The translations under genes were made by a program, and so were the position numbers. From a virus, in IMG/VR virus record IMGVR_UViG_3300046477_000550: 64,000 nucleotides of DNA. The stretch is one strand, 5' to 3'. Below, piece after piece: positions 23,657 through 39,456 of the stretch (positions are counted from its first letter, which is position 1; the number at the start of each line of letters is the position of its first letter). Below the pieces are notes generated by a model. It did not search any database. It was not told where the DNA came from and saw only the letters and a program-made list of their open reading frames with translations.

Positions 23657-23667
23657 CAGCGGTTCTC

Positions 23668-24386: not shown

Positions 24387-24550
24387 CAGGGGGTTCCGCC
24401 CTCGTCGAGGAGTTGGTCGATAAGGGCGCGGGCGAGTTCGGCGTTTCCGTCGTAGTAGATGGTCAGAGCGTGCTCAATGACGGGGCGGACGCTCGGGGCG
24501 ACATCGGGGCGGCTCTGCTCGCGGTGCTTGTTGTCGATGGTGTCGGCCAT
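24386..24550 (-). CDS. hypothetical protein
   Basis: ATG at 24550 with GAGGAG RBS. 54 aa. Confidence 0.5.
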   Translation of the reverse strand: MADTIDNKHREQSRPDVAPSVRPVIEHALTIYYDGNAELARALIDQLLDEGGTP

Positions 24551-25083: not shown

Positions 25084-25377
25084 ATGGGCATGACCGCGAC
25101 CGAGAAGAAGCAGCAGGCAGCGCGCGAAAGGCTCGACGAGCTCGCCTCGGCGTTCGTCAAGGCCGAGGAGCAGCTGGAGACCGCGCGTACCGCCCTGAAC
25201 GAGGGCATCGTCGACGTCCTCAAGGCCCGGACCCTGGGCCCATCGGAGGTCACGCGCCACGTCCCCTACGAGCGCCAGCACGTCGGACGCATCTCCAAGG
25301 CGGCAGGCATCCCACCCCTGCGCGAACGGACCGTCGTCAGCGCCAAAAGGGCTGCGCCAGAGCCGCCCCCCGAGTAG
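25084..25377 (+). CDS. putative regulator (helical, C-terminal HTH-like segment)
   Basis: ATG at 25084 or 25090. Reads MGMTATEKKQQAARERLDEL...ERQHVGRISKAAGIP. One of the few plus-strand genes, facing the operator array. Confidence 0.5.
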   Translation: MGMTATEKKQQAARERLDELASAFVKAEEQLETARTALNEGIVDVLKARTLGPSEVTRHVPYERQHVGRISKAAGIPPLRERTVVSAKRAAPEPPPE

Positions 25378-25430
25378 CCCGCTTCCCGATTCCCGCCCCG
25401 CTCCCCCACCGCCCGCGCCACACTGCCGAC

Positions 25431-25595
25431 ATGACGCTCAGGTTCACGGTCCAGGGCGACGACGAGGCGGAGACGGCCGAGGGCTACCAGCTGCTGCTGT
25501 CGCTGGGCCTCACGCCCCACATGCCGCCGAAATGCCTCACCGACGGGCGATGGATGGCGCGCCGTACCCGATACGACGAAAGCCCCGGCCGATGA
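25431..25595 (+). CDS. possible 54-aa ORF
   Basis: ATG at 25431 with no recognisable RBS. Confidence 0.25.
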   Translation: MTLRFTVQGDDEAETAEGYQLLLSLGLTPHMPPKCLTDGRWMARRTRYDESPGR

Positions 25596-25620: not shown

Positions 25621-25866
25621 TCAGGCGCCCGCCGCTCCCTTCGCTGCGACCGCGTCGGCCCGCCAGTTGGCGAGGGACTCGGCGCCGTAGGTGAGGGCGA
25701 GAATCCCGGCGAGGGCGGTGAGCGCCGCCGGGACCGCGGCGACAATCTCCGGCACGCCAACCGCCATCAGGGCGACGGTCACGGCGTATCCGGCCGACAG
25801 CGACGGGGCGAACACGGCGACCGCGATGAACAGTCGGGCGATCGGGCCTAGCTCGGGATGGAACAT
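25621..25866 (-). CDS. small membrane protein
   Basis: ATG at 25866 with AGGAG RBS. 81 aa with 2-3 hydrophobic helices. Confidence 0.55.
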   Translation of the reverse strand: MFHPELGPIARLFIAVAVFAPSLSAGYAVTVALMAVGVPEIVAAVPAALTALAGILALTYGAESLANWRADAVAAKGAAGA

Positions 25867-25882
25867 GGCGGGGCTCCTAGGG

Positions 25883-26335
25883 CTAGTTGTTGACGTTGGT
25901 CTTGCCGAACCACTTCTGGTGGACGTGGACTTCCTTGCGGACGGAGGCCGGCCCGCGGGAGCCGAGGTTGGCGGCGAGGAGGACCAAGCCGAGGAGGATG
26001 GCGAATCCGCTGGTGCCCATGAGGGCGATACCGGCGAACATCTGGCCGGCGCCGAAGCCGACTCCAGCGCCGGCGGCACCGATGCCGAAGCCGGTGGCGA
26101 GGATCTTTTGGGCCTGCGGGTCGACGAGCGGAATAGGCGTGAGGTCCCGAACCGGCTGCGGCTGCATGGCGGCCGGGACCTGCGATTTCCGCATGGGCAC
26201 CATCTGGCCGTAGGCGTCCGGCACGTAGACGACGGGGTCACGGTCGTCGTACAGCTCGATTTCGGCGGACTGGTACTGCCGCTGCCCGTCGGGGGCGGCG
26301 TAGCGCTGGTACCGCTCAGGCAGCGGACTGGGCAT
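25883..26335 (-). CDS. membrane protein (Spd-like position)
   Basis: 150 aa with a Gly-rich TM pair (GFGIGAAGAGVGFGAGQMFAGIALMGTSGFAILLGLVLLAA). Lies downstream of the translocase. Confidence 0.6.
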   Translation of the reverse strand: MPSPLPERYQRYAAPDGQRQYQSAEIELYDDRDPVVYVPDAYGQMVPMRKSQVPAAMQPQPVRDLTPIPLVDPQAQKILATGFGIGAAGAGVGFGAGQMFAGIALMGTSGFAILLGLVLLAANLGSRGPASVRKEVHVHQKWFGKTNVNN

Positions 26336-26366
26336 CAGGTCGGGTCTCCTTCGGGCCGGGGTGGGT

Positions 26367-26984
26367 TCAGTTCCAGGGGGCGGCGTTGCGCTGGCCGCGA
26401 ATCCAGGCGGTGAGGCGGGTGTCGTCGACGGTGGTTATGCCGACGCGTTCGGCGAACTCGCGGGCGTCTTTGGTGAAGTGGGAGGTGGTGACGACGGCCG
26501 CCCTCTGGCAGCGGTGGATGTCGCGGTAGGTGCCGTTGACGCACTGCACGTCTCCGGATTTGACGTTGTTGCCGATGGCGTACCGCTTGGCCTGAATGAG
26601 GATCCGGTGCTGTGACCTGCTCCAGGGCTGCCACCAGATCGCGTCGGGGGTGGTGGCGAGGACGTCGGCGGCAAGGTCTCCGGCGCCGCCGACGACCTGC
26701 ACGTCGGTGCATCCGTCGCGGCGGCACAGGTCGGCGATGTAGTGCTCGAACTGGCCGGCCGACAGACGGTGGGGGTCGGTGGCGCCGGATAGGCGTGGCC
26801 GTCGTCGCAGTAGAGATCGCAGCCGCTTTCGGAATGCGACCGCGGGGACGAGCACGAGCGCGCCGACCGTGAGGGTGATGACGAGGTGGTCGGCGACCCA
26901 CTGTGCGGCGACGATCGCGAGCACGACGAAGACGACGACGGGCCACAGGCTGGTGCGGGTCGCGTGGCGGTTGGCTGCGGACAT
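26367..26984 (-). CDS. membrane-anchored Mrr-like restriction endonuclease domain protein
   Basis: Two N-terminal TM helices, then FEHYIADLCRR...VVGGAGDLAADVLA...RILIQAKRY, the Mrr_cat D...(Q/E)xK core pattern. Confidence 0.7.
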   Translation of the reverse strand: MSAANRHATRTSLWPVVVFVVLAIVAAQWVADHLVITLTVGALVLVPAVAFRKRLRSLLRRRPRLSGATDPHRLSAGQFEHYIADLCRRDGCTDVQVVGGAGDLAADVLATTPDAIWWQPWSRSQHRILIQAKRYAIGNNVKSGDVQCVNGTYRDIHRCQRAAVVTTSHFTKDAREFAERVGITTVDDTRLTAWIRGQRNAAPWN

Positions 26985-26995
26985 GGTGGGCCCCT

Positions 26996-29230
26996 TCAGT
27001 GGTTGACGAGCTGGTAGGTGCCGCGACTGCCGGCGGGTTCGACGTGTCCGGCCTGGTGGAGGTCACCCATGACGTTGTTGATGCTGCCGGGGGCGACGTC
27101 GGGCATCCGCTTGCGGACGTCCCTGAGGGCCATGGGTCCGTCGGCGAGGAGGTCGAGGATGCGGTCCTTGATGCTGCCGGCGGAGGGCTCGTCGTCGTCG
27201 TCGAGGAAGTCGCGGTAGGCCGCGTCGCCGTCCTCAGCCCCGGAGTCGAGGTCCCCGGCGAGGAGCGCTTCGGCGTGGGGTAGCCAGCGGGCGTAGGCAT
27301 CCCGGAAGACGCGGTCCTCTTCCGGGGTGAGGGTGGGCGTGGGCGCCGATTCCATGAGGGCGATGAGACCCGGGTAGGTCTTGTCCACCTTGCGGGCCTT
27401 GAAGACCCGGGAGAGGAAGAGGACGCCGCCCTGGATGATGTTGGCCATGCCTGCGGTGATCGGACCGTTCTTTGCCTCCTCGCCGCTGAAGGCGGCGTCG
27501 ATGTCGCTGCCGGTTTTGAAGTAGCGCTGGATCGGGTCGAGGGTGACGCCGGGCGGGAGTACTCCGTCGGTGGCCATGTGCTGGGTTGTGCTGCTGTTTG
27601 TCCTGCCCAGCCAGACCGTGCCGTTTTTCGCGTTGGCGCGGATCTTGTCCTTGTCGCCGAGTTCAGCCAAGTGGATGTTCTGGGCGGCGAAGCGGATGCC
27701 CTTGCCGAGCTTGCGGCCGGTTGCCTGGGCATCGCTGACGAGGCCGGACACCCAGTTGCGGAAGGCGCGGGGGACGTCTGCATCGGAGGACAGGATCCGG
27801 TTGAGCTCGTCGAAGGTGCCGTTGACCAGGGCCCACGGTTTGCCGATCTCGAAGGAGCCCCAGCCGTTGGCGGCGGAGATCTTCTCCCGGTAGGCGCCGA
27901 GTTCGTTGAAGGCGGCGAGGGTCGCGCCGGTGGCTGCGATGCCTTTGCCGAAGTGGCAGACGCGGCCGTCGGCCTCAGGCAGGGACATGCCGTTCTGGGC
28001 GTCGGCGACGATGGATACGACGCCGGAGAGCCGTTCGGCGACGAGCACGGTGAGCAGGGCTACCGACTTGCCGGCTCCCATGGCGCCGACGAAAAGGTCG
28101 GTGACCGCACCCATCTCGGGGTCGTACAGCGCCATGCGGGCGGGGCGGCCGTCGTGACGGACGCCGATCTGAATGGTGCCGTCGGTACGCATGGTGAGGT
28201 CTTCGGCGGTGGCTTCGCGGACCTCCATCAGCGGATGGTTCTTGTAGATGGAGATGATGCCGTCGCCGAGGCCATCGGTTTCGACCATGACCAGCGACTT
28301 GTCCTTGTAGCCGATGGCGCGGGTGATCTGCGTCTGGTTCAGCTGGATCATCTGACCGTCGGGAGCGGTGACGCGCAGAGCGGTGCGGTTGAGTTCGGTC
28401 TTGTAGCCGGTGAGGTGCATGCCAGCGGCGCCCCCGTTGGGGCGGGCCAGCCGCTCGTAGAAGAGGCGCTCGGCCGGGTTCTGCTGCGCCTGCTCGACGG
28501 CGTCGAGGGTGGGCCGGGCGGTGAGCAGCTTGCGTCCGGGGCCGGAGCCTTTGATGAGGCTCAATGTGACGGTGCCGGGCGGCAGGTCGAAGACGGCGGC
28601 CAGCGCGGTCGCGTTGAGGTCGGGGACGGCTTCACCGGCTGGGGCGACGACGATGCCCCAGAAGTCGGGGTGCCGGGCGTCGTACTGGGTGACGGTGGTC
28701 AGCAGCGTGCTGCTGGTGGACCGGGCGTCGGCCCACTGCCGCGTCCGGTGCGCGCCGTAGGTGGCGAGCGGTGCGGCCTCCAGGGCGGGGATTTCCGCCG
28801 AAGCGTTCGGGAGTGCATCGGGCATCAGGTTGGTGGAGTGGGTGAGCGGCACGGTGGCCGCCATGAGCGCGCCCCATCCGGCGGGCAGCACGTACTCCCA
28901 CCAGGGGGCGCCGGGGTGGAGCAGGTCGGCGAGGTAGACGAGGGCGCCGGTCAGCGGCGGCACGACACGCTGGGCGGCGCGCAGGAACCCTGAGTGGCCT
29001 TCCGGGTGCTCCCACTTGCCGTACAGCCAGGCGAACGAGCCGATGGCGACACCGGCGGCGCCGAGGTGGGCGGGCCACCAGCCGTCATGCTGGGGGGTGA
29101 CGGTGATGCCGAGGGTGGCCGCACCGTAGAGGAGGCGCTCGAAGCGGGCACGGCGCCGGATGCTGCGGGCGGGAACGAGCCGCGGGCCGTCGTGTACGGC
29201 CAGGTCGGGCGTCTTGTCGGTGACGGCCAC
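26996..29230 (-). CDS. TraB/FtsK-SpoIIIE family DNA translocase
   Basis: 744 aa with GTG start and AAGGAGGA RBS. N-terminal TM helices, Walker A GAMGAGKS, Walker B-like LVNGTFDELN, C-terminal wHTH-like tail (LRDVRKRM...INNVMGDLHQAGHV). Confidence 0.85.
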   Translation of the reverse strand: MAVTDKTPDLAVHDGPRLVPARSIRRRARFERLLYGAATLGITVTPQHDGWWPAHLGAAGVAIGSFAWLYGKWEHPEGHSGFLRAAQRVVPPLTGALVYLADLLHPGAPWWEYVLPAGWGALMAATVPLTHSTNLMPDALPNASAEIPALEAAPLATYGAHRTRQWADARSTSSTLLTTVTQYDARHPDFWGIVVAPAGEAVPDLNATALAAVFDLPPGTVTLSLIKGSGPGRKLLTARPTLDAVEQAQQNPAERLFYERLARPNGGAAGMHLTGYKTELNRTALRVTAPDGQMIQLNQTQITRAIGYKDKSLVMVETDGLGDGIISIYKNHPLMEVREATAEDLTMRTDGTIQIGVRHDGRPARMALYDPEMGAVTDLFVGAMGAGKSVALLTVLVAERLSGVVSIVADAQNGMSLPEADGRVCHFGKGIAATGATLAAFNELGAYREKISAANGWGSFEIGKPWALVNGTFDELNRILSSDADVPRAFRNWVSGLVSDAQATGRKLGKGIRFAAQNIHLAELGDKDKIRANAKNGTVWLGRTNSSTTQHMATDGVLPPGVTLDPIQRYFKTGSDIDAAFSGEEAKNGPITAGMANIIQGGVLFLSRVFKARKVDKTYPGLIALMESAPTPTLTPEEDRVFRDAYARWLPHAEALLAGDLDSGAEDGDAAYRDFLDDDDEPSAGSIKDRILDLLADGPMALRDVRKRMPDVAPGSINNVMGDLHQAGHVEPAGSRGTYQLVNH

Positions 29231-29271
29231 GGTGGTGTCCTCCTTCAGGTCAGGTCAGGTCAGGGTGCGGG

Positions 29272-29784
29272 TCAGTAGACTTCGTTGAACTGGGCTTTCG
29301 GCTGCTTTACGCCGCCGGGCAGGGCCTTGACGGTTTCGTGGATGCCGCCGTACTCGGACTGGTGGGCGTCACGGACGCCGTTGGCGTTGGCTTCCATGCC
29401 GTCGGCGGCGTTGGCAACTTCGCCGGAGGCTTCGGCAACCCGGTCGAAGGCGGCGGCGACCTCAAGAGCCTGGGCCTGGAAGCGGGCGTCGACGCCGGCC
29501 TGGGCGAGGTGTCCGGCGAGGCGTCGGGCACGCTGCGCGTCGTGGTGCATGCGCGCCTTGAGGAGGTGCAGCTGCTCCTTGAGGATGGCGGCCGCGGCGG
29601 CGAGGGCCATGATGCGCAGGGCGAGGGTGACGAAGTTGAGGATGCCGCTGATGGCGCCTCCCCAGCTCATCCGCTGGGGCTGGTTGTTTCCAGTGGCGGC
29701 CGGGAGGTTGTCGCTGTCTGCGGCGGCAGCTTCGGCGCCGGTCTGGACGGAAGTGGGTTCGATCGCGTTACTGTCGTCGCTCAT
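29272..29784 (-). CDS. membrane/coiled-coil protein
   Basis: ATG at 29784. 170 aa with one TM helix (ISGILNFVTLALRIMALAAAAAIL), then a helical region. Confidence 0.6.
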   Translation of the reverse strand: MSDDSNAIEPTSVQTGAEAAAADSDNLPAATGNNQPQRMSWGGAISGILNFVTLALRIMALAAAAAILKEQLHLLKARMHHDAQRARRLAGHLAQAGVDARFQAQALEVAAAFDRVAEASGEVANAADGMEANANGVRDAHQSEYGGIHETVKALPGGVKQPKAQFNEVY

Positions 29785-29795
29785 CGTCGTCTGCC

Positions 29796-32015
29796 TCAGG
29801 TCTGGTTGTGGATCGGCGCGGAGGGGGTGGTGAGGCCGGCGTCGGCGGTGGCCTGGGTGATGGGCCGGTAGGTGTCGTTGAGGTCGTTGTCTGCGGTCTC
29901 GGACTGTTCTGCTGCTTCGAGGGAGGAGACCTGCATTTCGTCGGACATGCGGGCGACCAGGTCCATGGACTCGGCCATGCGGGCCATCGCGCCGGAGAAC
30001 AGCGGGCCGATGAGGTTGTGGTTGACGGCGAGGTCTTCGGCGAACAGGGCGAGGATGTCGCGGAGTTTGCGGCCGCGGTCGGCGAGCTTGGCGGCCTGGT
30101 CGTGGGTTTTGAATCCGTCGTCCTTGAAGTCGCCGTATTCGTCGAGGGCGTCGTCGAGGTTGATTTCGGTGGCGTGTTGGGCGTCCATGTGGCGGGCGGC
30201 GGTGATGATGCCGTGGCCGGTGCGGGCGGCCTGGTTGCGGGCCTTCGCGATGCGGCGGTCGGGCTTGGCGGGGGGCATGGCGATGGGCTCCTTGGGGCGG
30301 GTGGTGCCGGGGCGGGGCGGGTTCACGGTCGGTGCGGTGTCGAGGGCGGCCGGACCGTTCTTGGGCAGCGCCGGAGTGCCGGTGCCGAGCGCGTCGGGTT
30401 CCCACCGTTTGGCCTGCGCGCCCGGATAGTCGTCGCGTTCGACGGTGATGGTGGCGGCTGCCTGGCCGGCGGCCTGGCCTGCGTTCTGGAAGGGGCTGCG
30501 GCGCGTCCGGCCCGCCGATCCGCCAGGGGCTCCGGCGCTGCCGGTGCCGGTGTTGGTGCCGGTCGGGCCCGTGGTGCCGCCGAAGCAGCCGCCGTTCTTC
30601 CGGGTGCGGGCGCGGGCGTTCGCCCACCACGCGCCGGCCTTCCGTCCGGCATTCCTGAACCGTTTGTTCTTCCGCCGACTGCCGCTTCCCGTCGCGCCGG
30701 GGGCCGCGCCTGGCTTCTTCGGCTTGTTCAGGTTGACCTTCGGCGTACCGCCGTTGCCCGTCTTCGACTTTCCGTTCTTCGGGGCGGACCAGATGGGCGG
30801 GGTGACCGTTTGACGGCGGCGCTTCAGCCGTTTGCGGGCGGCCCGGTGTGCAGCCTTCCGCAGCGCCTGGGCCAGCGTGGTGCGTCCGGCGGCCTGCGTG
30901 TTGCTCTTCCCTGCGGCGGCCCCCGGAGTGGCGCTGCCGGGCCGGCCCGGAGCCTTCGTCAGGTTGACCTTGGCGGGCTGCCCGGGGGCGCCCGTCGGGT
31001 TCTTCGGCGCGTTCTTCTGGCTCTTCTGGCCGCTGCCCCACAGGGCGGGGGTGGCTCCGCCCTGCTTCTGCCGCTTCTTCCAGCGGCGCGCCGCGGCCTT
31101 CTGGGTGTCCTTCTTCAGTGCGGCGCCCAGCCCGGTCCTGCCCGAGCCGCTGTCGCTGCCGCCGTCAAGCTGCTTGCGGCGCTGCTTGTCCAGGCCGGCC
31201 TTCGATCCGGCCTGCGAGTTATGGAGCGGACTCTTCTTCGGCTTCGGCCCGACGGTGGTGTCGGGCTTCTTCGGCTTCGGGCCTGCACCCGGTCCGGTGT
31301 TCTTCCTGCCGGGGCCAAGCCCGTTGGTGCGGGACGACGAACCGCCGCCACGCCCGGACGGGCCCTTACCGGGCGGCTTCTTCCCGCCGCCGCCCGCTCC
31401 CCCACCGCGGCCCGACGAACCGCCGGAACCCCCACGGCCGAGCGCCTTCCCGCCGAACTCGGGACCGGACTGCACACGCTTCGCACGCTGCTGGACGCCC
31501 TTGTCCCGCAGACCCTGCATCGCCATGACGTGCTTGCCGCGCGCCTCCTCCGTCGCCAGCCGCATCTTCATCCGTGCCTCGCGAAGCTGCGCATTCTCGG
31601 CCTCGCGGGCAAGACGGCGCTGGCGCCGGTCCTGAAGGAACGCGTGCGTGCCACGCAGCGCGGCCACAGCAACGGCCAGGCAGGCGGCCAGCGACAGGGC
31701 GCCCAGTCGGGGAACCGCCGAACCGCCGAACCCGCCGTCACTGCGGAAGGTCGCCGGAACATGTCCGGGCTGCGGCCGGGCAGCCGGGGGCGGTACGACG
31801 GGGGCCTGCGCACTCAGGTCGGGAAGCGCGGCCAGCGCGGCAAGGGGACTGCGGCGCGCCCGACGGGCCGGCCGGCCGTCATCCGGAGCCGGCGCCGAGG
31901 GCGGAAAGCTGGGAGCGGGCGGGGCGGTGGGAGTCGTGGTGGGCGGCAGGCGGAAGCCGAGCCGGGGGAAGTTGTAGACGCGCGCATCGCTCTGATCGCC
32001 GGTCGAATCGGTCAT
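29796..32015 (-). CDS. large Lys/Gly/Pro-rich membrane-anchored protein
   Basis: ATG at 32015 with GGAAGGGGG RBS. 739 aa. One TM helix, a coiled coil, about 400 aa of low-complexity basic sequence with many AAG Lys codons (which argues for the true frame), and a helical acidic C-terminal domain. Confidence 0.65.
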   Translation of the reverse strand: MTDSTGDQSDARVYNFPRLGFRLPPTTTPTAPPAPSFPPSAPAPDDGRPARRARRSPLAALAALPDLSAQAPVVPPPAARPQPGHVPATFRSDGGFGGSAVPRLGALSLAACLAVAVAALRGTHAFLQDRRQRRLAREAENAQLREARMKMRLATEEARGKHVMAMQGLRDKGVQQRAKRVQSGPEFGGKALGRGGSGGSSGRGGGAGGGGKKPPGKGPSGRGGGSSSRTNGLGPGRKNTGPGAGPKPKKPDTTVGPKPKKSPLHNSQAGSKAGLDKQRRKQLDGGSDSGSGRTGLGAALKKDTQKAAARRWKKRQKQGGATPALWGSGQKSQKNAPKNPTGAPGQPAKVNLTKAPGRPGSATPGAAAGKSNTQAAGRTTLAQALRKAAHRAARKRLKRRRQTVTPPIWSAPKNGKSKTGNGGTPKVNLNKPKKPGAAPGATGSGSRRKNKRFRNAGRKAGAWWANARARTRKNGGCFGGTTGPTGTNTGTGSAGAPGGSAGRTRRSPFQNAGQAAGQAAATITVERDDYPGAQAKRWEPDALGTGTPALPKNGPAALDTAPTVNPPRPGTTRPKEPIAMPPAKPDRRIAKARNQAARTGHGIITAARHMDAQHATEINLDDALDEYGDFKDDGFKTHDQAAKLADRGRKLRDILALFAEDLAVNHNLIGPLFSGAMARMAESMDLVARMSDEMQVSSLEAAEQSETADNDLNDTYRPITQATADAGLTTPSAPIHNQT

Positions 32016-32136
32016 GACGCCCCCTTCCGGGGTTGACAGGCTGTAGTCGGATCGGGGACCCTCGCGCGCGCGCATCGCGCGCGCGCCTCTGGCCGGTCAT
32101 CACCTCGTTTCCCGGGGGTGATGATGATGAATACGG

Positions 32137-32358
32137 TCACTGCGTGTGACGCTGGTAGAAGTCGTGGAGGTGGGAGGCGAGCTGGTTCGCGACGGCCGGG
32201 TCGCCGTTCTCCAGCGCGTCCTTGGCTAGCTTGCGGGTGACCTCGTACCAGAACCCGACCAAGTGCATCGGGCCCTTCTCGGCCGCCTTCGCCTGCCGGC
32301 CGTTGTAGTGCTCGGTCTGATTCACGAGCGTCTTCCGCGCCTGCCGCGGCGTCGTCAC
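32137..32358 (-). CDS. hypothetical protein
   Basis: GTG at 32358 (GTGA overlap, GGAGG RBS). 73 aa. Confidence 0.45.
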   Translation of the reverse strand: MTTPRQARKTLVNQTEHYNGRQAKAAEKGPMHLVGFWYEVTRKLAKDALENGDPAVANQLASHLHDFYQRHTQ

Positions 32359-32909
32359 AGCGCCTCCGGAAAGTCCACGAAGAGGTCGGCCATGTCCGGA
32401 AGGGACTGCTGCGAGCCGGCCGGCTGTGCGAACTGGTGCGGGTACGGGCTGACGTACTGCGGCTGCGGCGCTGCGTTGACCTGCGGGTTTCCGACCGGCT
32501 GGCCGCCGTTGAAGGCCCGCGCCGATGCGTCCAGAGACTTGGCGACCGTCTCGTGCGCGCCCCCGGCCAGGCCGCGCCGGCTGCGACGCGTCTCGGAGCG
32601 CTCCAGTTCCCGGCGCCGCCGCTCGGGCAGTTCGAGGACTTCCCGCACGTAGACCGCGTTGCAGGCCTCCATCTCGGCGGCGGCGCGCTCCAGGTGGCGG
32701 ATCGCCCTGTTCAGCCGCCGCACCACCTTGGCGGCCCTGCGGCGGGCGTGACCTGCGTTTTTGTCGCCGTCGACATGGGTGTTCTCCAGGCGGGCCTTGA
32801 TGACGTTGGCCATCTGGCGCAGCTCGGAGCCGTCGTTGTTGTACTTGTCGCGCTCGTCCTCGGTCCACGTCCGCATTCCCTGCTGCTTCATCAGGGCGTC
32901 CATGTCCAC
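32355..32909 (-). CDS. hypothetical protein
   Basis: 184-aa ORF with GTG start. Helical, basic centre. Confidence 0.55.
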   Translation of the reverse strand: MDMDALMKQQGMRTWTEDERDKYNNDGSELRQMANVIKARLENTHVDGDKNAGHARRRAAKVVRRLNRAIRHLERAAAEMEACNAVYVREVLELPERRRRELERSETRRSRRGLAGGAHETVAKSLDASARAFNGGQPVGNPQVNAAPQPQYVSPYPHQFAQPAGSQQSLPDMADLFVDFPEAL

Positions 32910-33211
32910 TGCCGGTTCTCCTGTACGTCACTGGTTCCTGGGCTGGTGAGGGCCTTGCGGGTCCGGCAGGTGGGGGCTTCTTCGGCCCCCGCAGCCCGGT
33001 ACTGATGTCCGGGCTGCAGGGGCTGTCGAGGCCTCCTGTCGTTCGGTGTTCGCCTGTCGGATGTGCGCCGGGCCTGCTTGCCGGGTCTGCGAACGTTCCG
33101 CTCACCGGGTCACTCACCGGGGTTGATCTGCTGTTTTGCTGTGTCGACTGCTTCCGGCAGTCTCGGCGAGGACCAGAACCGTGGGGTGCTGGGCCTCACC
33201 GGGGGCGCCGG

Positions 33212-34312
33212 CTAGCTGGTGGTGACGCCGCTCTCGCGGGCTTCGATCGCCTTCCAGGCATGGCGGACGCGCTCCTCGCGGGCCTTGAAGCCGTGCTTGC
33301 GGAACTCTTCCTGCGCCTGCCGGTAGGAGCGCGGGGGCTCCATGCCGTAGCGCAGCCACCGCAGGACCAGGGAGAGCTGTTCGCCGGAGAGCTGCACGCC
33401 CGGCTGGGGAAGGTCCACGCCCGCGATTTCCGCGAGTTCCGGCAGGGTCATGCCGTCCTCGACGGGGGTCTGCTGACCGCCCGTGACCGTGTCCGTTTCG
33501 TCCGGAGTCACGGTCGGGATGGTCACGGCCTCGATTTCCGGCTTGGCCTGTGTGACCACGGTGTGACCATCCGTGCGCACCGGGGCGTCTCCCGCGGCCG
33601 TGACCGCAGGCCGCGCAATGACCACCCCGAGGTCTCGTTGGGTGAACGCCAGGGCCGCAGCGCCGTGCTTCTTGCCGGACTTCTCCAAGCGCCCCTCGGC
33701 CTTGGCGCGGGCCTTGTCGATGCGGGACTGCGCGACGGTCAAAACCCCGGCGCGGGCGATCTGCCGCTCCATCTCCGCGAGATGCGTGGCCGTCTCGACG
33801 AACGCGTCCGTCGTCGCCCCGGACCGCAGATGCCGGGCGTCGGCAGCGGCCAGGGCGCGCTCGTTGCGGTCGGCGGCCGACTGCTCGGCGATCCGGGCCG
33901 CCGTCGGCGCATCCGCCAGCACGTTCCCGGCGAACAGACGCAGCCCCATGAACAGGGCCGCGGCCACGGGCACGAACGCGAACACCTTGGCGTGGCCCAG
34001 CATGAGCAGGATCGTCGACGACAGGCCGACCGCGGCTGCGGACAGGCCCAGCATGACGGCCATGCCGACCGTCGAGCGCTGCCGGATCGCGATCTCCGAC
34101 ATGCGCAGCGAACCGATCCACAGCGCGTCGTACACGATGGCGATCGACCAGGCGACCGCGAGGCCGACCTTGCCGTGCAGGCCGATCATGTGGCCGAGCT
34201 GACCGCCCACCGTGATCGCCACCAGAGCGAGCGAGGCGAGTGTCAACAGCTTCTCAATGACCGCGAACACGTCGATGCGGTGGAGGGCTGTGAACCTGCT
34301 GGAAAAACTCAT
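33212..34312 (-). CDS. 4-TM membrane protein with C-terminal DNA-binding-like domain (DUF2637-like)
   Basis: ATG at 34312 with GAGGAGGG RBS. Four N-terminal TM helices, a helical linker, then a C-terminal MTLPELAEIAGV...LSLVLRWLRYG segment. This architecture is typical of proteins linked to TraB in actinomycete mobile elements. Confidence 0.6.
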   Translation of the reverse strand: MSFSSRFTALHRIDVFAVIEKLLTLASLALVAITVGGQLGHMIGLHGKVGLAVAWSIAIVYDALWIGSLRMSEIAIRQRSTVGMAVMLGLSAAAVGLSSTILLMLGHAKVFAFVPVAAALFMGLRLFAGNVLADAPTAARIAEQSAADRNERALAAADARHLRSGATTDAFVETATHLAEMERQIARAGVLTVAQSRIDKARAKAEGRLEKSGKKHGAAALAFTQRDLGVVIARPAVTAAGDAPVRTDGHTVVTQAKPEIEAVTIPTVTPDETDTVTGGQQTPVEDGMTLPELAEIAGVDLPQPGVQLSGEQLSLVLRWLRYGMEPPRSYRQAQEEFRKHGFKAREERVRHAWKAIEARESGVTTS

Positions 34313-34338
34313 GATCCCTCCTCTCAAGGGATAGACGG

Positions 34339-34593
34339 TCAGAGCTGATTGGGTTCGAGGGAGTAGAAGAGGACGTTGTGGTCGGCGGGCTGTCCAGCCC
34401 TGGCGAGCTGGTCGGAGATGTAGGTGCGGATGCTGTTGAAGGCGTCCCGCCGGGTGTCTCCCGGCTGGGGCGTGAAGGCGCCCTTGAAGGTGAACAGGCC
34501 GACGACGCCGGCCATCTTCTGGGCGGGCTGGACGGTGGCGATCCAAAACAGTTCGGTGGCCGCGGCCTGGGCGGGTGCGGTGGTGGCAGTCAT
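34339..34593 (-). CDS. hypothetical protein
   Basis: ATG at 34593 with GGAGA RBS. 84 aa. Confidence 0.55.
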   Translation of the reverse strand: MTATTAPAQAAATELFWIATVQPAQKMAGVVGLFTFKGAFTPQPGDTRRDAFNSIRTYISDQLARAGQPADHNVLFYSLEPNQL

Positions 34594-34883
34594 CGGGAAA
34601 TCTCCGTTTCCAACTCGGTGACGGTGTTCGTACTGGCAGGCAGCAGAGCGGCAGGCCCGTCGCCCGCAGGAACCGGCTCCGGTGCTCCGTAGAGGCGTCC
34701 AAGCAGCGGATCGGCGGCGAGGCTGGCGCACAGGGTGATCCCGACGACGAACACCCACCGCCAGACCGCACCCATCACGGCAGGCAGCACCTGATGGGTG
34801 CCGTAGCCGACGGATCCGATGAAGGCGAGGTGAAGCAGGGTGACGCCGATCCATCGGGCAGTCGGGCGGCGGGTGCGGGCCAT
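34590..34883 (-). CDS. membrane protein
   Basis: ATG at 34883 with GAGAGGA RBS. 97 aa with two TM helices. Confidence 0.5.
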   Translation of the reverse strand: MARTRRPTARWIGVTLLHLAFIGSVGYGTHQVLPAVMGAVWRWVFVVGITLCASLAADPLLGRLYGAPEPVPAGDGPAALLPASTNTVTELETEISR

Positions 34884-34981
34884 CGTGCGAGTCCTCTCGA
34901 TTCGGTGAATGGATGTGGTGGTGCTGGTCGTGCTGGGCGCCGCATCGTGGGGGCGATGCGGTCCCCGGCAGGGCCAGGGGG

Positions 34982-35338
34982 TCAGGCCATGTCGCGGTAC
35001 TCGTCGACCATGTCCGTGACGCTGTTCAGCAGGTCGCTGGCCCGCTCGATGAGCACGGCCTGCTCGGTGCCGGAGGCGTTGGCGGCGTCGTTGAGGTAGG
35101 TGGAGGCGGTGTCGAGGTCCTCGGCGTTGTTGATGCCGGCGTCCTCCATGCGGCTGCCGGCGGTGCCGACCTGGCTGGCGAAGGCCTCCAACGTGGTGGC
35201 GGGCCTGTCGGAGGCGACGAACGCGATGTCGTCGCCGTACCAGGAGATGAGCAGCTTGGCGGTGACGGCGCAGTGGCCGTCGCAGCCTTCGCCGTCGTGG
35301 ATGGTGCAGCTGTAGCGGTGGACGAGGTCGGTGGTCAC
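34982..35338 (-). CDS. hypothetical protein
   Basis: GTG at 35338 with GAGGG RBS. 118 aa. Confidence 0.5.
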   Translation of the reverse strand: MTTDLVHRYSCTIHDGEGCDGHCAVTAKLLISWYGDDIAFVASDRPATTLEAFASQVGTAGSRMEDAGINNAEDLDTASTYLNDAANASGTEQAVLIERASDLLNSVTDMVDEYRDMA

Positions 35339-35343
35339 GGCGG

Positions 35344-35508
35344 TCAGCCCTCCTCGACCTGGGTGAAGGTCCAGTTGCCGTTCGTGGTGCCCGCATTGGT
35401 CTCCCACTCGGAGCGGGCCTTCGCGAGGAACGGGCTGTCGAACGTGCCGACGGCGTCGCCGTTCTCGTCGCGGGCCTCGGTCGGCTGGTAGTCCTTCGAG
35501 TACTTCAT
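35344..35508 (-). CDS. 54-aa hypothetical protein
   Basis: ATG at 35508 with GAGAGGA RBS. Reads MKYSKDYQPTEARDENGDAV. Below the ORF-track length cutoff. Confidence 0.45.
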   Translation of the reverse strand: MKYSKDYQPTEARDENGDAVGTFDSPFLAKARSEWETNAGTTNGNWTFTQVEEG

Positions 35509-35643
35509 GTGCAGTCCTCTCGGTTCGAAGTTCGGGGTTGGGGTGGGGCACCGCGCTGGCGGAACGGAGGGGAGCCGTTGACGCCCGCCAGCGCGGCGAG
35601 CCGAACACGGGACGGGGGAGACCTGCGCCCGGCGATCAGGGGT

Positions 35644-35811
35644 TCAGCGCTCGTCGCCCAGCACCGCCCAGCGCCCGCCGAACTGGGCGCTCAGCTCGGC
35701 TTCGGCCGAGTCGGCGACGGCCGTGAAGTCGGTGTCGGGGCCTTCGGTCACGCCCGACGCGGACCGGTTTTGTCCGCCGAGCTCCATCGCGTCCCACTCA
35801 GTGCGTGCCAT
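35644..35811 (-). CDS. 55-aa acidic hypothetical protein
   Basis: ATG at 35811 with GAGGAG RBS. Reads MARTEWDAMELGGQNRS. Confidence 0.45.
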   Translation of the reverse strand: MARTEWDAMELGGQNRSASGVTEGPDTDFTAVADSAEAELSAQFGGRWAVLGDER

Positions 35812-35926
35812 GCGGTATCTCCTCGGATTGAAGGGGTGGTGCGGTGCGCGCCCCCACCCGCGGGTGGGGTGGATGGGCGTGCAAGCCGTGGCGCGGGCCG
35901 GGGGATGGTGACCCGCACCACGGCGT

Positions 35927-36193
35927 CTAGGTGGTGGTCAGGCCGCGGCGCCGGGCGGCTTCGTCCATGACGTCCTGGCCGTTGAAGCCGTGCGCCTCCG
36001 CGATCTCGCCGAGCCGGTGGCTTTCGACGACGGCCGCCGTGTGGGTCGGGTCGCCGTAGTGGTCGCGACCTTGGGCGTGCAGGCCGTCGGCGATGCTGCG
36101 GCACAGGTTGGACTGGTCGGCTGCGGCACCAAGGGCGTCGGCGGCGCTGGCGCGGTCGGCGAGCTGGCTCGGCAGCCAGGAAGGCTTGGACAT
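35927..36193 (-). CDS. hypothetical protein
   Basis: 88-aa ORF. Confidence 0.55.
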   Translation of the reverse strand: MSKPSWLPSQLADRASAADALGAAADQSNLCRSIADGLHAQGRDHYGDPTHTAAVVESHRLGEIAEAHGFNGQDVMDEAARRRGLTTT

Positions 36194-36203
36194 GGCGGGC
36201 TCC

Positions 36204-36401
36204 CTAGTCGATGCGGGTGATGTCGGTGGGTTCCGGGTCGAGGACGGTGCCGCCCCGGTTGATGCGGTGATGCAGGCGCCGGGCCTTGACTGCGGTCTTG
36301 GCGACCGCCTCGGCGGGGCTGTCGGCGCGGGTGCTGTACGTGTACTGGCCGCCCTCGCCGGGGCCGGATGCGCCGCGGCGGGTGACTGTGAAGCGAGACA
36401 T
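36204..36401 (-). CDS. hypothetical protein
   Basis: 65-aa ORF. Confidence 0.5.
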   Translation of the reverse strand: MSRFTVTRRGASGPGEGGQYTYSTRADSPAEAVAKTAVKARRLHHRINRGGTVLDPEPTDITRID

Positions 36402-36427
36402 GGCGTCCTCTCTCGGGGCGGGGTTGG

Positions 36428-36580
36428 CTACCAGTACTTGGCGTCGGCGGGGTCGATCTCCGGCAGCTCCCGGGCCGTCTCACGCAGGGCGTCCGCTTCA
36501 CGCCGGGCGCGGGCGACCGCGGCAGGGTCGGGCGACTGCAGGGGCTTCGGCGGCGCGTCGGCGCGCTTCCGGCCGGACAT
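36428..36580 (-). CDS. 50-aa hypothetical protein
   Basis: ATG at 36580 (TGATG overlap). Reads MSGRKRADAPPKPLQ. Confidence 0.4.
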   Translation of the reverse strand: MSGRKRADAPPKPLQSPDPAAVARARREADALRETARELPEIDPADAKYW

Positions 36581-36798
36581 CAGGCCGCTGCCGGGTAGTT
36601 GAAGCCGTCGAGGTCGTCGAGGACGGGCGGCTCGTCGGGGTGCTGCCGGTCGTAGTCGCCGGCGAGCTTCTTGATGCGCCGCATCCCGATGTCGTCGTCG
36701 GCGTCGAGGGCGATCTCGTAGCGGGCCTGCAAGTCGAGACGGGCACGCTGCGCGGCCTCGTAGGCGTCCAGAGCGTCGGCAATCAGGTAGAGCGGCAT
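36580..36798 (-). CDS. hypothetical protein
   Basis: 72-aa ORF. Confidence 0.55.
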   Translation of the reverse strand: MPLYLIADALDAYEAAQRARLDLQARYEIALDADDDIGMRRIKKLAGDYDRQHPDEPPVLDDLDGFNYPAAA

Positions 36799-36853
36799 GA
36801 GGGGGACCTTTCAGGTCGCAGAGAACGAGGGGGTGAGGCGGGGGTCAGGGGGG

Positions 36854-37288
36854 TCAGCGGTCGGTGTAGGGCTGGGCGCGGCACTTCTCGGCGTGCGCCT
36901 GCGCCCACTCGCGGGCGGCCTGGATCAGTGGCAGCACGGCCTCGGCGGGAAGGTCGGCGTCTTCCTCCAGCGGCCACGAGTCGGCGTTCTTGTCGGTGAA
37001 CTCCGGGTCGGTGCAGCCGTGACCGTGGCACTTCGCCTCCGCGCCGACCTCGACGTGGATGGCGGGGGGCGGCGAGTAGCCGACGATTCCGTAGCGCTCG
37101 CGGATGACGGTCGTGGCATGGACGGCGACCAGGGCACCACCAGCGGTGGTGTAGCGGCCCGCCTCGTTGCGGTAGGTGCCGTAGACGCCTCCATGGCGGG
37201 ACGTCCTGTCCGCGATCTGCTTGCGGTGGGCGCGGATCGTCTCGGCAACCTCGATCTTCAGGTCCGGGGCGGTCGGGATGTACGACAT
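36854..37288 (-). CDS. hypothetical protein
   Basis: ATG at 37288 with GGAGGG RBS. 144 aa. Contains a CHGHGC motif. Confidence 0.55.
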   Translation of the reverse strand: MSYIPTAPDLKIEVAETIRAHRKQIADRTSRHGGVYGTYRNEAGRYTTAGGALVAVHATTVIRERYGIVGYSPPPAIHVEVGAEAKCHGHGCTDPEFTDKNADSWPLEEDADLPAEAVLPLIQAAREWAQAHAEKCRAQPYTDR

Positions 37289-37459
37289 GGAAGCCCTCCA
37301 GGGCGATGACAGGTCAGGAAGGGGGTGGCCGCGGACGGTGGACGGGCGGGGACCTGCTTGACCGCCCGCGGCCGGAATGGGGGTGCTACTTGGGCCGGGA
37401 CTCGGACTCGCGGTTGGTCTTGGCGACCTTCCGGGAGAGCTCGGCACGCTGCTCGGCGG

Positions 37460-37630
37460 TCACGACCCGTCACCGCCGTCCGGGACGACGACCAGGAACG
37501 CGTCATCGGCCAGCGACATGACGACCTCGACGGAAAGGCCCTCCAGCCGGCGTTCGGCGGCGAACTCCTCCGCCGGCCAGTTACCGCGCGGGGCACCAGC
37601 GGCGAAACGCTCCAGGACGGTGCGGGCCAT
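37460..37630 (-). CDS. 56-aa hypothetical protein
   Basis: ATG at 37630 (TGATG overlap). Confidence 0.4.
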   Translation of the reverse strand: MARTVLERFAAGAPRGNWPAEEFAAERRLEGLSVEVVMSLADDAFLVVVPDGGDGS

Positions 37631-37914
37631 CAGGCGTCACCGCCGTCCGCGAGGAACGCCTCAACCTCGTCGCCGACGGCTGCGATGTCGGCGTCCGGGA
37701 CGGCCAGCCCGTTGGTCGGATTGCCCGCCCACAGCCGGTTCGTGGCCTTCTCGATGTCCGCCTCGGAGAGCGAGACGTCGTCGACGATCTGGCCCTTCGA
37801 ATTCAGGAAGATGATCCGGCCCGCAACCTGCTCGTCGGCGGAGAGTTCCTTGAACTGCTCGGCGAGGCCGTACAGGCTCATGTCGTCATCGGTGGAACCG
37901 CGGGAAGCCATCAC
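37630..37914 (-). CDS. hypothetical protein
   Basis: 94-aa acidic ORF. Confidence 0.55.
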   Translation of the reverse strand: MMASRGSTDDDMSLYGLAEQFKELSADEQVAGRIIFLNSKGQIVDDVSLSEADIEKATNRLWAGNPTNGLAVPDADIAAVGDEVEAFLADGGDA

Positions 37915-38153
37915 TGCACCTCGCCTTCGGCAACGATGCGCTGCGCCGTCTTGAACGCCACGAACCCGACACGGCCCGTACCGTCGGCGCCACGCTCCAG
38001 CCGGTCGTAGATGGCCAGCGGACTCGGCTCGACGGGCAGAACCACCCCGCCGGACTCCAGCAGGCGCATCGCCTCGGCGATTACGGCCTTACGGTCGACC
38101 GGCTTGCGGACGTAGCTCGCGGCCTCGTGCGCGGCCATGTCGGCGGGGCTCAT
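37911..38153 (-). CDS. hypothetical protein
   Basis: 80-aa ORF, coupled to neighbouring genes. Confidence 0.55.
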   Translation of the reverse strand: MSPADMAAHEAASYVRKPVDRKAVIAEAMRLLESGGVVLPVEPSPLAIYDRLERGADGTGRVGFVAFKTAQRIVAEGEVQ

Positions 38154-38365
38154 GCGGACACCTCGACGAGGTCGAGACGGCCGGCGCTGACCAGCGTCGC
38201 CTTGGCGGCGGCCAGCATGTCCTGCGCGTGGGCCAGGTAGTCGGACTCGCCCGGCGTCAGGTCGCGGGAATCCGTGACCGCCGACAGTTCCGCGGTACGG
38301 GCCGACGCGACCTTGTACACGTTCGCGGCGAGGGTGAGGGCCGGGGTGGGGATCGGGGTACTCAC
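38150..38365 (-). CDS. hypothetical protein
   Basis: GTG at 38365 (GTGA overlap). 71 aa. Confidence 0.45.
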   Translation of the reverse strand: MSTPIPTPALTLAANVYKVASARTAELSAVTDSRDLTPGESDYLAHAQDMLAAAKATLVSAGRLDLVEVSA

Positions 38366-38937
38366 GCCGTCACCGCCTGAAGCGACAGGATCTGTTCGGC
38401 GACCAGGGCCATGCCCCGGCCGTGCGCCCGGTTGTCGGTCCGGAAGAACTTGAGGTGCCCGGTCAGGGAGTACGGGGTGGTGATCTCGGACAGGCCTGTC
38501 AGGCGGCCGATCAGGTTCGTCGTCTGCGCGTCGTCCATACCGGCGAGCACCGTGAGGGCGCGGCCGATGATCCGGCGCCGTGCCCGCTTCTCTCCCACCG
38601 ACAGTTCGGGCAGCACGGCCAGCACCGGGGAGTCGCCCAGGTTGACGGTCTGCTCCGTCACGCTGTCGTGGTCGCGGATCGTGATCTGGTCGCCGTCGCG
38701 GGCAACCACAGTCCAGGCGATACCGGCCACCTGCAGGGAGAGGATGCCCTCGCCGGACACGGAACCGTTCGAGTGCGTCCAGTGCGCGGCACCCATTCCG
38801 GGCTTCACGAACGTGTCGCCGACAACCAGCTCGGATGCCGGGGTCAGCCACAGGTCATTCCATACGAACCCGTGGTCGGACGGGGTGTTGAGCACGCCGG
38901 TTCCGGCACTGGCGTCTCGCCAAGTACGATCTATCAT
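38362..38937 (-). CDS. hypothetical protein, first gene of the transfer-type operon
   Basis: ATG at 38937 with AGGAGGA RBS. 191 aa. Faces the 14-bp repeat region. Confidence 0.6.
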   Translation of the reverse strand: MIDRTWRDASAGTGVLNTPSDHGFVWNDLWLTPASELVVGDTFVKPGMGAAHWTHSNGSVSGEGILSLQVAGIAWTVVARDGDQITIRDHDSVTEQTVNLGDSPVLAVLPELSVGEKRARRRIIGRALTVLAGMDDAQTTNLIGRLTGLSEITTPYSLTGHLKFFRTDNRAHGRGMALVAEQILSLQAVTA

Positions 38938-38981
38938 GTCTGGTCCTCCTGATAGCGCAGGTGGTTCCGGATGTCCTGACA

Positions 38982-39071
38982 GGTGTGCAACCACCTGATC
39001 GGGCCGGCCCTTCTCGGTGTGCAACCACCGGGAAGGGCTGTCATGCAGCCCCGGTCTGGTGTGCAACCACC
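38982..39071. promoter_or_regulatory. three perfect copies of GGTGTGCAACCACC in a divergent intergenic region
   Basis: Copies at 38982-38995, 39016-39029 and 39058-39071. TTGACA at 39117 sits upstream of the plus-strand HTH gene. Confidence 0.55.
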
Positions 39072-39153
39072 AGTCGGGGCCTCGTTCGTTTTCGACAGTA
39101 GAGGACTTCTTGCGTCTTGACAAGTGACCGGCATCGAAGGGAAGAATGTACCC

Positions 39154-39456
39154 ATGAACACCGATGACGAGAGAGGAGGGATGCCCGACCTTGTCACCTT
39201 CACGGAGATCGCCAAGCGGCTCACCGAGCGCGGCATCATCGAAGGGTCGATCACCCGACAGGGCGTCCGCCACATCGCAGACACCGACCCGGACTGGCCC
39301 GTCCCGCCCGAGCACTGGATCAAAGCGGGGCGCGCCTTCCTGATGCACTGGGATCCCGTGGAGAAGTTCTTCCGTGAACGCGAAATGCCTCGCAGAAGAG
39401 GGCCCGGCAAGAAGGCCGAGTCGGCCGGCGCTGAATCCGAAAAGCCCGAGCAGTAA
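39154..39456 (+). CDS. Xis/MerR-like HTH DNA-binding protein
   Basis: LVTFTEIAKRLTERGIIEGSITRQGVRHI...DWPVPPEHW matches the HTH_17 pattern. ATG at 39154 is preferred (GGGAAGAA upstream). The ORF is open from GTG at 39124. Confidence 0.6.
   Translation: MNTDDERGGMPDLVTFTEIAKRLTERGIIEGSITRQGVRHIADTDPDWPVPPEHWIKAGRAFLMHWDPVEKFFREREMPRRRGPGKKAESAGAESEKPEQ

Follow-up and report, generated by a model that had tools for sequence, protein, structure and literature searches.

SCP2 (AL645771), a theta plasmid of 31 kb from Streptomyces coelicolor A3(2), carries no phage genes. Its transfer region has the gene order SCP2.27c-25c-24c-23c-traB-traX-traA, and traA is annotated as the major plasmid transfer protein. 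For SCP2 and pZL12, PMC3583192 states that transfer needs the major tra gene together with two genes next to it. pZL12 (phage ZL12) is cited as a well-characterised plasmid-phage of Streptomyces (Zhong et al., 2010, J Bacteriol, as cited); its record (GQ919031, 90.4 kb) lists ParA/ParB and an integrase along with a virion module and a tra locus. The spread protein SpdB2, a pore-former with four transmembrane (TM) segments, is required for intramycelial spread and has been seen on actinophages, and the SpdB2 homologues found there were proposed to spread phage DNA in the mycelium (Thoma et al., 2015; PMC4447253). Here we analyse a gene block of this kind in viral DNA, the IMG/VR record IMGVR_UViG_3300046477_000550, which is a contig from a metagenome. 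The stretch studied, 64,000 nt in length, is referred to as the window.

The block, at 25621–38937, is probably an SCP2-type Streptomyces tra/spd module and an integral part of the genome of a temperate Streptomyces siphophage, as judged from sequence comparison and a structural model. An original prediction, made from the letters of the window, had described it as an actinomycete conjugation-type (TraB/Spd-like) operon within a phage genome. This description is borne out by gene-for-gene homology with SCP2, by the FtsK-like fold of the translocase g44 and by the SpdB-type domain of g49. Nearly all features that had been listed are present where they were placed.

Homology with the SCP2 transfer region

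The G+C content is about 69% throughout the window, and genes were called by frame bias at third codon positions (GC3). The Joint Genome Institute (JGI) gene calls for contig L028, whose identity to window positions 16996–39230 is 99.97%, served as an independent check; both sets of calls agree. The block consists of 24 minus-strand genes, tightly packed with short gaps or 4-nt overlaps and free of frameshifts. It starts with an ATG at 38937, preceded by an AGGAGG ribosome-binding site, and its end at 25621 abuts two convergent plus-strand genes (25084–25595). From the start downwards, 15 small open reading frames (ORFs) are followed by genes for proteins of 366, 182, 73, 739, 170, 744, 205, 150 and 81 aa. 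The anticipated minus-strand operon behind a repeat-bearing promoter, opened by about 15 small ORFs, was thus found as such, with three upstream repeat copies and 15 small ORFs in the JGI calls. The junctions between block and phage genes recur in three independent assemblies.

The order of the SCP2 transfer genes is the order in the window, and six consecutive genes are pairwise homologous. Homologues of the major tra gene and of both adjacent accessory genes (traB and SCP2.23c) are all present with their order kept. A membrane protein heads the block in both cases, being a DUF2637 protein in SCP2 and the HTH_SpdB_C-type protein g49 in the window.

The main DNA translocase, g44, is 33% identical to SCP2 traX and 50% identical to SCP2 traA (joint E-value 2e-139). 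It contains a Walker A motif (GAMGAGKS) at residue 382, TFDE at 472–475 and GRKLGKGI at 505; Walker A, TFDE and GRKxGxGI are invariant across 30 homologues. By tblastn, matches were found in 159 Streptomycetaceae plasmids. Two plasmids, both circular and of 93.7 and 86.9 kb, code for proteins 67% (NZ_CP107756) and 63% identical to g44, and proteins named ‘DNA translocase FtsK’ by NCBI are about 28–30% identical. No match was obtained among 50,697 phage records, pZL12 included, either by tblastn with g44 or by megablast with the whole block.

An AlphaFold model of g44, built on 30 homologues, has a mean pLDDT of 78. Foldseek matched it to TcpA (6o1w, 2e-12) and FtsK (6t8g/2iut/2ius, about 1e-11), and also to EccC/EssC, with overall E-values of 1e-9 to 1e-12 and a probability of 1.0. 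The motor domain shares its fold with FtsK, TcpA of pCW3 and EccC (target-normalised TM-score about 0.6), but sequence identity is only 14–16% and the N- and C-terminal domains differ. The FtsK gamma domain is absent from g44, while it is present in one more distant plasmid homologue. At the C-terminus the model contains a winged helix, made of three helices and a two-strand wing (residues 687–741, pLDDT about 90). phrog_30549 matches residues 684–729, and NCBI calls the homologues ‘winged helix-turn-helix’ proteins. The N-terminus is modelled as four long helices at residues 21–126 with a mean hydropathy of only −0.2 to 0.75. Of the FtsK/TraB-type translocase that had been predicted, the GAMGAGKS motif, the FtsK-like fold and, at the C-terminus, a winged helix-turn-helix (HTH) hold; the supposed TM N-terminus is only weakly hydrophobic, and the Pfam family FtsK_SpoIIIE is not matched.

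In SCP2, traX and traA (L002, 8896–11207) are annotated as two adjacent genes, while here and in all other homologues, about 200 in number, there is one continuous protein (740–770 aa). A frameshift or an artefact of annotation may account for the split in SCP2.

Both accessory genes adjacent to the translocase gene have counterparts. g45 is 43% identical to SCP2 traB (E-value 3e-22) and 68% identical to a protein of NZ_CP107756 that NCBI names ‘conjugal transfer protein TraB’. By its sequence, g45 is a small accessory transfer protein, unlike the TraB translocase of the pSVH1 type. In g46 the C-terminal 260 residues are conserved and 41% identical to SCP2.23c, a ‘glycine-rich protein’ (E-value 8e-44); identity is 46% to a protein of a Streptomyces cynarae plasmid and 43–61% in IMG/VR loci. 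This is the basic membrane protein of the original prediction, and its pI and its one predicted TM segment agree with that description. Upstream of g46, g47 and g48 are weakly similar to SCP2.24c (29% identity, E-value 5e-8) and SCP2.25c (31%, 4e-5), respectively, in both cases in register. g47 also matches phrog_33274 at 2e-33 and is 37–70% identical to proteins in related loci, while g48 reaches 39–69% in elements of about 90 kb. The TraA-like family PF28214 is recorded on equivalents of g48, and the NCBIfam family plasmid_TraA matches g48 itself at 1e-5, which is below its cutoff.

The gene heading this group codes for g49, in which four to five hydrophobic segments are predicted within residues 15–132; it lies in the same operon as the translocase gene. 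The C-terminal domain HTH_SpdB_C (PF27079) is recorded on the identical protein of L028, on a 92% identical protein of the related contig L021 and on all 120 homologues listed. These are precomputed records; our own Pfam scan did not return PF27079. The original prediction of a four-TM, DUF2637-like protein is correct as to the membrane segments. DUF2637 was rejected for g49, as there was no match even at an E-value of up to 1 and BLAST against SCP2.27c was empty. Positional equivalents of g49 with DUF2637 occur in SCP2 (SCP2.27c), in a S. cynarae plasmid and in one IMG/VR contig (L006 and L014 being the further loci).

Directly after the translocase gene follows g43, the expected membrane Mrr-like nuclease, with two predicted N-terminal TM segments. 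In seven related loci TraA is closely followed by a homologue of g43 (31–39% identity); SCP2 has none. The operon is closed by g42 and g41, both hydrophobic as anticipated. They are conserved in L021 at 62% and 97%, respectively, and g42 at 48% in L014; neither has a family match in Pfam, PHROG or NCBIfam. At the other end of the operon, none of the fifteen small ORFs matched Pfam, and only a few of them (g51, g58) are common to related loci.

Table 1. Features of the transfer block and its promoter side, with window positions.
Feature	Position	Strand	Basis
g63, 401 aa, HTH_31/XRE-type, divergent gene	39589–40794	+	Pfam HTH_31 at 2.4e-11
g62, 91 aa, divergent gene	39181–39456	+	Gene call
Promoter/operator region with the 14-bp core GGTGTGCAACCACC in triplicate, each copy in its own imperfect palindrome	38975–39081		Sequence scan
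First operon gene, 191 aa	38362–38937	-	Gene calls
Fifteen small ORFs, 50–191 aa, mostly acidic, no TM segments	34339–38937	-	JGI calls on L028 and GC3 calls
g49, 366 aa, SpdB-type spread protein	33212–34312	-	TM prediction; HTH_SpdB_C on identical protein
Conserved non-coding element, about 150 nt, directly 3' of g49	33034–33220	-	Conservation and predicted structure
g48, 182 aa (182–184), ‘TraA-like’ small protein	32355–32909	-	SCP2.25c homologue
g47, 73 aa	32137–32358	-	SCP2.24c homologue
g46, 739 aa, pI 11.3, Gly/Lys/Pro-rich, one predicted TM segment	29796–32015	-	SCP2.23c homologue
g45, 170 aa, single TM segment	29272–29784	-	SCP2 TraB homologue
g44, 744 aa, main DNA translocase	26996–29230	-	Homology to SCP2 TraX and TraA; predicted FtsK-like fold
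g43, 205 aa, membrane-anchored Mrr-type restriction-endonuclease-fold protein	26367–26984	-	Pfam Mrr_cat at 2e-22
g42 (150 aa) and g41 (81 aa), both small membrane proteins, closing the operon	25621–26335	-	TM prediction

Phage flanks, relatives and mosaic structure

The block has phage genes on both sides, as had been predicted. The virion-side flank contains, by Pfam, Phage_tube_2, SU10_MCP, Phage_portal and a terminase, together with tRNA-Gly and tRNA-Ile at 15.9–16.2 kb; the early-side flank contains a DnaB helicase and an N6/N4 DNA methylase. Of the virion and packaging module, the terminase, portal, capsid and tail tube genes are inside the window and the tail genes lie past its left edge. 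Beyond the right edge a further 10 kb are covered by the Logan contig L017, which carries genes for a RecE-like nuclease and, divergently, an HTH_31 protein.

Neither an integrase nor ParA/B or Rep turned up among the about 100 proteins of the window or in the extension by L017 (about 74 kb altogether), and tblastn with the ParA, ParB, integrase and GntR proteins of pZL12 and pAmyja1 gave no match. This agrees with the original prediction, which had noted the lack of an integrase in the 64 kb. It had also considered a separately integrated actinomycete integrative and conjugative element (AICE) with its own att sites and integrase. When direct repeats resembling att sites were sought on either side of the block, only short imperfect matches within coding DNA came up, and there is no composition boundary at the block, GC, GC3 and codon usage being equal to those of the rest of the window. 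Of the proposed phage-plasmid, the virion module is present; genes for replication, partition and integration were not found in the about 74 kb.

Related elements were checked for the same block. Its slot, with a regulator on one side and the packaging genes on the other, matches in pZL12, in the circular 87–94 kb plasmids NZ_CP107756 and NZ_CP032230, in IMG/VR contigs, in a 91.7 kb contig of Streptomyces sp. and in chromosomal relatives, and a tra block occupies it in at least three virion lineages. Among the best 120 homologues of g44, 33 are on contigs of 86–98 kb, a narrow size class like that of pZL12. Dozens of Streptomyces contigs and plasmids of 86–98 kb have a g44-type TraA at 60–74% identity beside pZL12-like virion genes; in those examined, the circular plasmids and IMG/VR contigs with TraA at 61–73%, the terminase and portal are 51–70% identical to those of pZL12. 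By sequence this is a large, mostly unannotated pZL12-like family, in which the tra module acts as a cassette that can be exchanged.

The virion proteins of the window belong elsewhere. They are 50–73% identical to those of pAmyja1 and unrelated to those of pZL12, and they are 66–85% identical (portal 71–80%) to loci in four Streptomyces genomes, where they lie in the middle of contigs of 173–394 kb. Homologues of g49 with about 75% identity are encoded on the same Streptomyces xanthochromogenes contig as the virion relatives and on a 7.9 Mb chromosome. The nearest relatives of both the virion module and g49 are therefore found inside large contigs and this chromosome, and relatives in general occur as circular plasmids and inside chromosome-sized contigs.

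A second type of tra cassette follows the g49-type gene and the conserved element in other loci, where it fills the slot described above. It consists of genes for proteins of 62, about 390 and 130 aa and an about 845-aa protein, then a homologue of pZL12.70c and the terminase. The about 845-aa protein has the Walker A motif GTTGAGKT and is 23–28% identical to g44, with 23–26% for the S. xanthochromogenes contig and the 7.9 Mb chromosome. This cassette is present in L022/L029 (S. xanthochromogenes), in L030 (the 7.15 Mb chromosome of Streptomyces sp. NBC_00893), and in L031 and L033–L036. With the g44, pZL12.71c and about 845-aa types, at least three types of translocase occupy phage-borne tra slots. 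Within the block, only window positions 27.0–30.3 kb match the about 90 kb plasmids at the DNA level (77%). Because relatives of g49 at 75% identity have the other cassette, and because the DNA-level match to plasmids is limited to this segment, cassette exchange is indicated. In the simplest reading of these sequences, g49, the element downstream of it and the virion genes are native to one phage lineage, while g48–g44 (with g43) were exchanged with pZL12-like plasmid-phages of about 90 kb. The original prediction of one operon, in a block ‘of exactly this kind’, needs revision: the TraB/Spd type stands, but parts of at least two origins are combined in the block, and its regulator is of the XRE type instead of the usual GntR regulator TraR.

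Outside the tra block, two short stretches at 23114–24484 (g34, a DUF3560 protein, and neighbours) match 88–93 kb Streptomyces plasmids at 76–84% DNA identity. They represent a further small module common to the family of about 90 kb plasmids.

Three other features of the window are recorded here. Five copies of a 23-bp palindrome, GCTAGGTCG-N5-CGACCTAGC, spaced 23 or 57 bp apart, are located at 55616–55828 in a 910-bp gene-free region upstream of the DnaB-helicase operon; they are a candidate for a replication origin, a centromere-like site or an early operator. At 13248–14498 on the minus strand, between the tRNA region and the terminase gene, a 416-aa Arg/Pro-rich ORF with about nine degenerate RRGRF(T/Q)WTPP-like repeats was missed by the GC3 gene filter. 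The minus-strand gene at 7145–8611, between the portal and head genes, codes for a 488-aa protein with a 2'-5' RNA ligase/LigT-type phosphoesterase domain (E-value 2e-11). It is 58–62% identical to proteins of Streptomyces relatives and matches the anti-CBASS protein Acb1 below threshold (E-value 2.4e-4), and may be an anti-defence nuclease in the virion module.

Promoter region and the element downstream of g49

Three exact copies of the 14-bp core GGTGTGCAACCACC lie upstream of the operon start, with the divergent regulator genes on their other side, and the window has no further copy. No copy was found in the related loci, which have other repeats at the same place. In pSVH1, TraR binds 14-bp repeats upstream of spdB3 (Thoma et al., 2015; PMC4447253). 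Of the two divergent genes, g63 is 60% identical to the gene at the same relative position in two related loci (L010, L016), and g62 is 36–39% identical to its counterparts in L009 and L016. By analogy with the plasmid systems, g62 and g63 are candidate repressors of the tra operon in a Kor-like role. Scans for sigma-70 promoters and terminators were uninformative at 69% GC, with no promoter detected and terminators at chance level.

The gene for g64, a DUF6907 protein (40890–41297, plus strand), adjoins the regulator genes. In the chromosomal relatives L029 and L030 it is kept at 32–38% identity in the same relative position, beside GntR and NUDIX genes. It may be part of the regulatory switch of the tra operon.

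The non-coding element directly 3' of g49 was first revealed by a 52-nt match of 98% DNA identity in the plasmid comparison. It is 86–98% conserved in two chromosomal relatives, a 289 kb Streptomyces plasmid and five IMG/VR contigs of 48–65 kb (found in L021 and L028–L036), and always stands directly after a g49-type gene, the g49-type proteins being 69–77% identical. It contains two inverted repeats and short direct-repeat arrays of the forms CCGGTGAG(T/C)G and GCAG(A/G)CCCGG, the arrays also being described as GACCCGGN-like.

As ten related sequences went into the structure analysis of the element, its results are no more than suggestive. RNAalifold predicts two stem-loops with 38 pairs. Of the cells in the alignment, 99.5% are paired; sliding the partners lowers this to 24–46%. 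Compensatory changes are seen in four pairs, a level reached by one of 500 shuffles, and the fold scores z = −2.2 against shuffles in the sense and z = −0.4 in the antisense direction. The Rfam search returned no family, and a covariance-model search detected no further copy in the window and none in SCP2 or the pZL12-like loci.

The clt loci are described in PMC3583192 as direct plus inverted repeats. The composition of the element is suggestive of a candidate clt, a binding site for the HTH domain of SpdB or a cis-regulatory RNA leader for the tra genes. As it follows g49 and not the translocase type, the SpdB-HTH site and the regulatory RNA are as likely as a clt. The element probably also marks the junction of the cassette exchange. 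In Streptomyces TraB-type systems the winged HTH binds direct 8-bp repeats of the cognate clt; the recognition motif of pSVH1 is GACCCGGA. Another sequence, CCCGGTGAG, which is present three times, was considered as a stand-alone clt signal and rejected: it was weakly significant (12 of 100 shuffles window-wide, 53 of 2000 locally) and has been superseded by the conservation analysis.

Proposed function and comparison with known systems

From the plasmid systems the following mechanism can be proposed. The divergent XRE-type repressor g63, perhaps together with g62, would bind the three 14-bp operators and hold the operon off. Once expressed, g44 would form an FtsK-like ring at the membrane, recognise a cis site on the circular double-stranded DNA of the phage or episome by its C-terminal winged helix, and pump the unprocessed double-stranded DNA into a neighbouring hypha. 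g45 and g46 would represent the two adjacent genes needed beside the main tra gene in SCP2-type systems. In the recipient mycelium, g49 would aid spread across the septal cross-walls together with g47, g48 and the small membrane proteins. The phage would in this way have a capsid-independent route of spread alongside its virions. A possibility for the membrane Mrr-type nuclease is that it provides the DNA-processing or exclusion function still missing from the conjugation of double-stranded DNA without a relaxase.

Several points weigh against an SCP2-type transfer module of a temperate phage. No gene for plasmid maintenance or integration turned up in the about 74 kb. The usual GntR repressor (TraR/KorA) is absent, and tblastn with the GntR proteins of SCP2 and pZL12 found no match. 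The motor domain of g44 has no sequence match in Pfam (including FtsK_SpoIIIE), NCBIfam or PDB, and its assignment to FtsK therefore rests on fold and transitive homology; SCP2 TraA itself scores only 0.0087 on FtsK_SpoIIIE. Homology between g44 and pZL12.71c was rejected (hhalign probability 9%, P-loop only). As pZL12.71c is not homologous beyond the P-loop, the pZL12 precedent covers the architecture and not the g44 family in a phage. Finally, the repeat element keeps company with the g49-type genes rather than with one translocase type.

What the module does could be confined to a single mycelium, where it would move phage DNA across cross-walls or into prespore compartments and give colony-wide infection or lysogeny, with no transfer between mycelia. 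Such a role is what Thoma et al. (2015; PMC4447253) proposed for the SpdB2 homologues on actinophages. It fits reports of FtsK-like genes in lytic Streptomyces phages without a plasmid lifestyle, as well as the chromosomal integration of relatives of this lineage and the lack of plasmid genes in the window. We consider it unlikely as the whole function, since the g48–g44 cassette is that of the conjugative plasmid SCP2 and of circular plasmids of about 90 kb, and TraB of the plasmid systems performs both intermycelial transfer and spread. For the latter reason the two activities are hard to separate. It is improbable, too, that the block has been repurposed for superinfection or entry exclusion, for defence by the Mrr nuclease and the DNA pump, or for segregation of the prophage or episome at sporulation. 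In many of the copies borne by phages, and not in SCP2, a membrane Mrr-type nuclease is coupled to the translocase, which would suit such functions, as would the fifteen upstream small ORFs, for which plasmid tra regions have no counterpart. Every component that SCP2-type transfer is known to require is nevertheless kept and intact, and nothing positive points to a defence system, although no PADLOC search was made.

The exchange of g48–g44, seen as 77% DNA identity to plasmids over 3.3 kb, is also what could be expected if an AICE or a plasmid fragment had been inserted in the phage as an independent mobile element and stood outside phage biology. This explanation is already largely refuted and has very little probability left. 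Flanking integrase, Rep and att-like direct repeats are lacking, and GC, GC3 and codon usage are those of the rest of the genome. The slot is shared by at least three virion lineages, g49 and the downstream element are native to the lineage, and the junctions are identical in independent assemblies. An SCP2-type module belonging to the phage genome remains the preferred explanation. A more general version of it is tentative: a large group of temperate Streptomyces siphophages, integrated prophages and episomal plasmid-phages of about 90 kb alike, may carry TraB/Spd cassettes as a standard module that is freely exchanged. They would always be placed between the lysogeny or early regulators and the packaging genes, and would give a capsid-independent, conjugation-like spread through and between mycelia. 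One lineage would carry the previously undescribed, highly conserved and structured element of about 150 nt by spdB as a clt or tra RNA switch, and the window would hold an SCP2-type cassette that took the place of the lineage's own at this element.

If the module is active, the phage genome spreads without virions. This would bear on the modelling of host range, superinfection and gene flow in Streptomyces populations of soil, and the annotation categories ‘plasmid’, ‘AICE’ and ‘prophage’ would blur. The SCP2-type translocase family and its partners are annotated as ‘hypothetical protein’ almost throughout. In NZ_CP107756 and NZ_CP032230, which PLSDB types as ‘non-mobilizable’, the translocase has the same label. 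In view of these labels, many Streptomyces plasmids of about 90 kb and many IMG/VR ‘viruses’ are probably conjugative plasmid-phages that were missed by the pipelines.

Among the described systems, SCP2 has the same transfer genes, but it differs from the window in having a GntR regulator and lacking the Mrr nuclease. The TraB-Spd systems of pSVH1 and pIJ101 (Reuther, 2006; Vogelmann, 2011; Thoma, 2015) follow the same logic: one FtsK-like membrane translocase with a C-terminal winged HTH, a four-TM SpdB2-type protein, spd genes that are small and translationally coupled, and a repressor acting on 14-bp repeats upstream. A TraB-type translocase of Streptomyces forms a hexameric pore, has ATPase activity and is essential for transfer and pock formation. 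Their sequence families differ from those of the window, and the GntR regulator TraR present there has no counterpart here. pAmyja1, a circular plasmid of Amycolatopsis japonica (NZ_CP008954, 92.5 kb) and thus from another host genus, is related in its virion genes (terminase 73%, portal 59–60%, capsid 63% and tail tube 50% identity). It has integrase and ParB-like genes, and no tra/spd block in its 92.5 kb. For an AICE, flanking integrase, att sites and Rep would be expected, none of which was found around the block.

pZL12 is closest in architecture. Its tra locus, with the membrane protein 73c, the 766-aa protein 72c and the FtsK-like 71c, has a divergent GntR gene on one side and the packaging genes on the other, which is the slot of the block in the window. 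Its ParA/ParB, integrase and GntR regulator are not found in the window; pZL12.71c and 72c have no detectable homology to g44 and g46, and the virion genes are unrelated. Most pZL12-like relatives carry an SCP2-type TraA, as the window does. The novelty that had been attached to conjugation genes in a phage does not hold, since pZL12, whose tra locus occupies this slot, and the proposal of Thoma et al. (2015) came before. The combination of tra genes with a phage genome has been known since pZL12 (2010), and the window is a further mosaic example. As pZL12 established the principle in 2010, the gain is one of breadth and detail and not a new concept: it concerns the extent of the family, the exchange of cassettes from one virion lineage to another and, at the junction, a conserved element of clt-like or RNA type.

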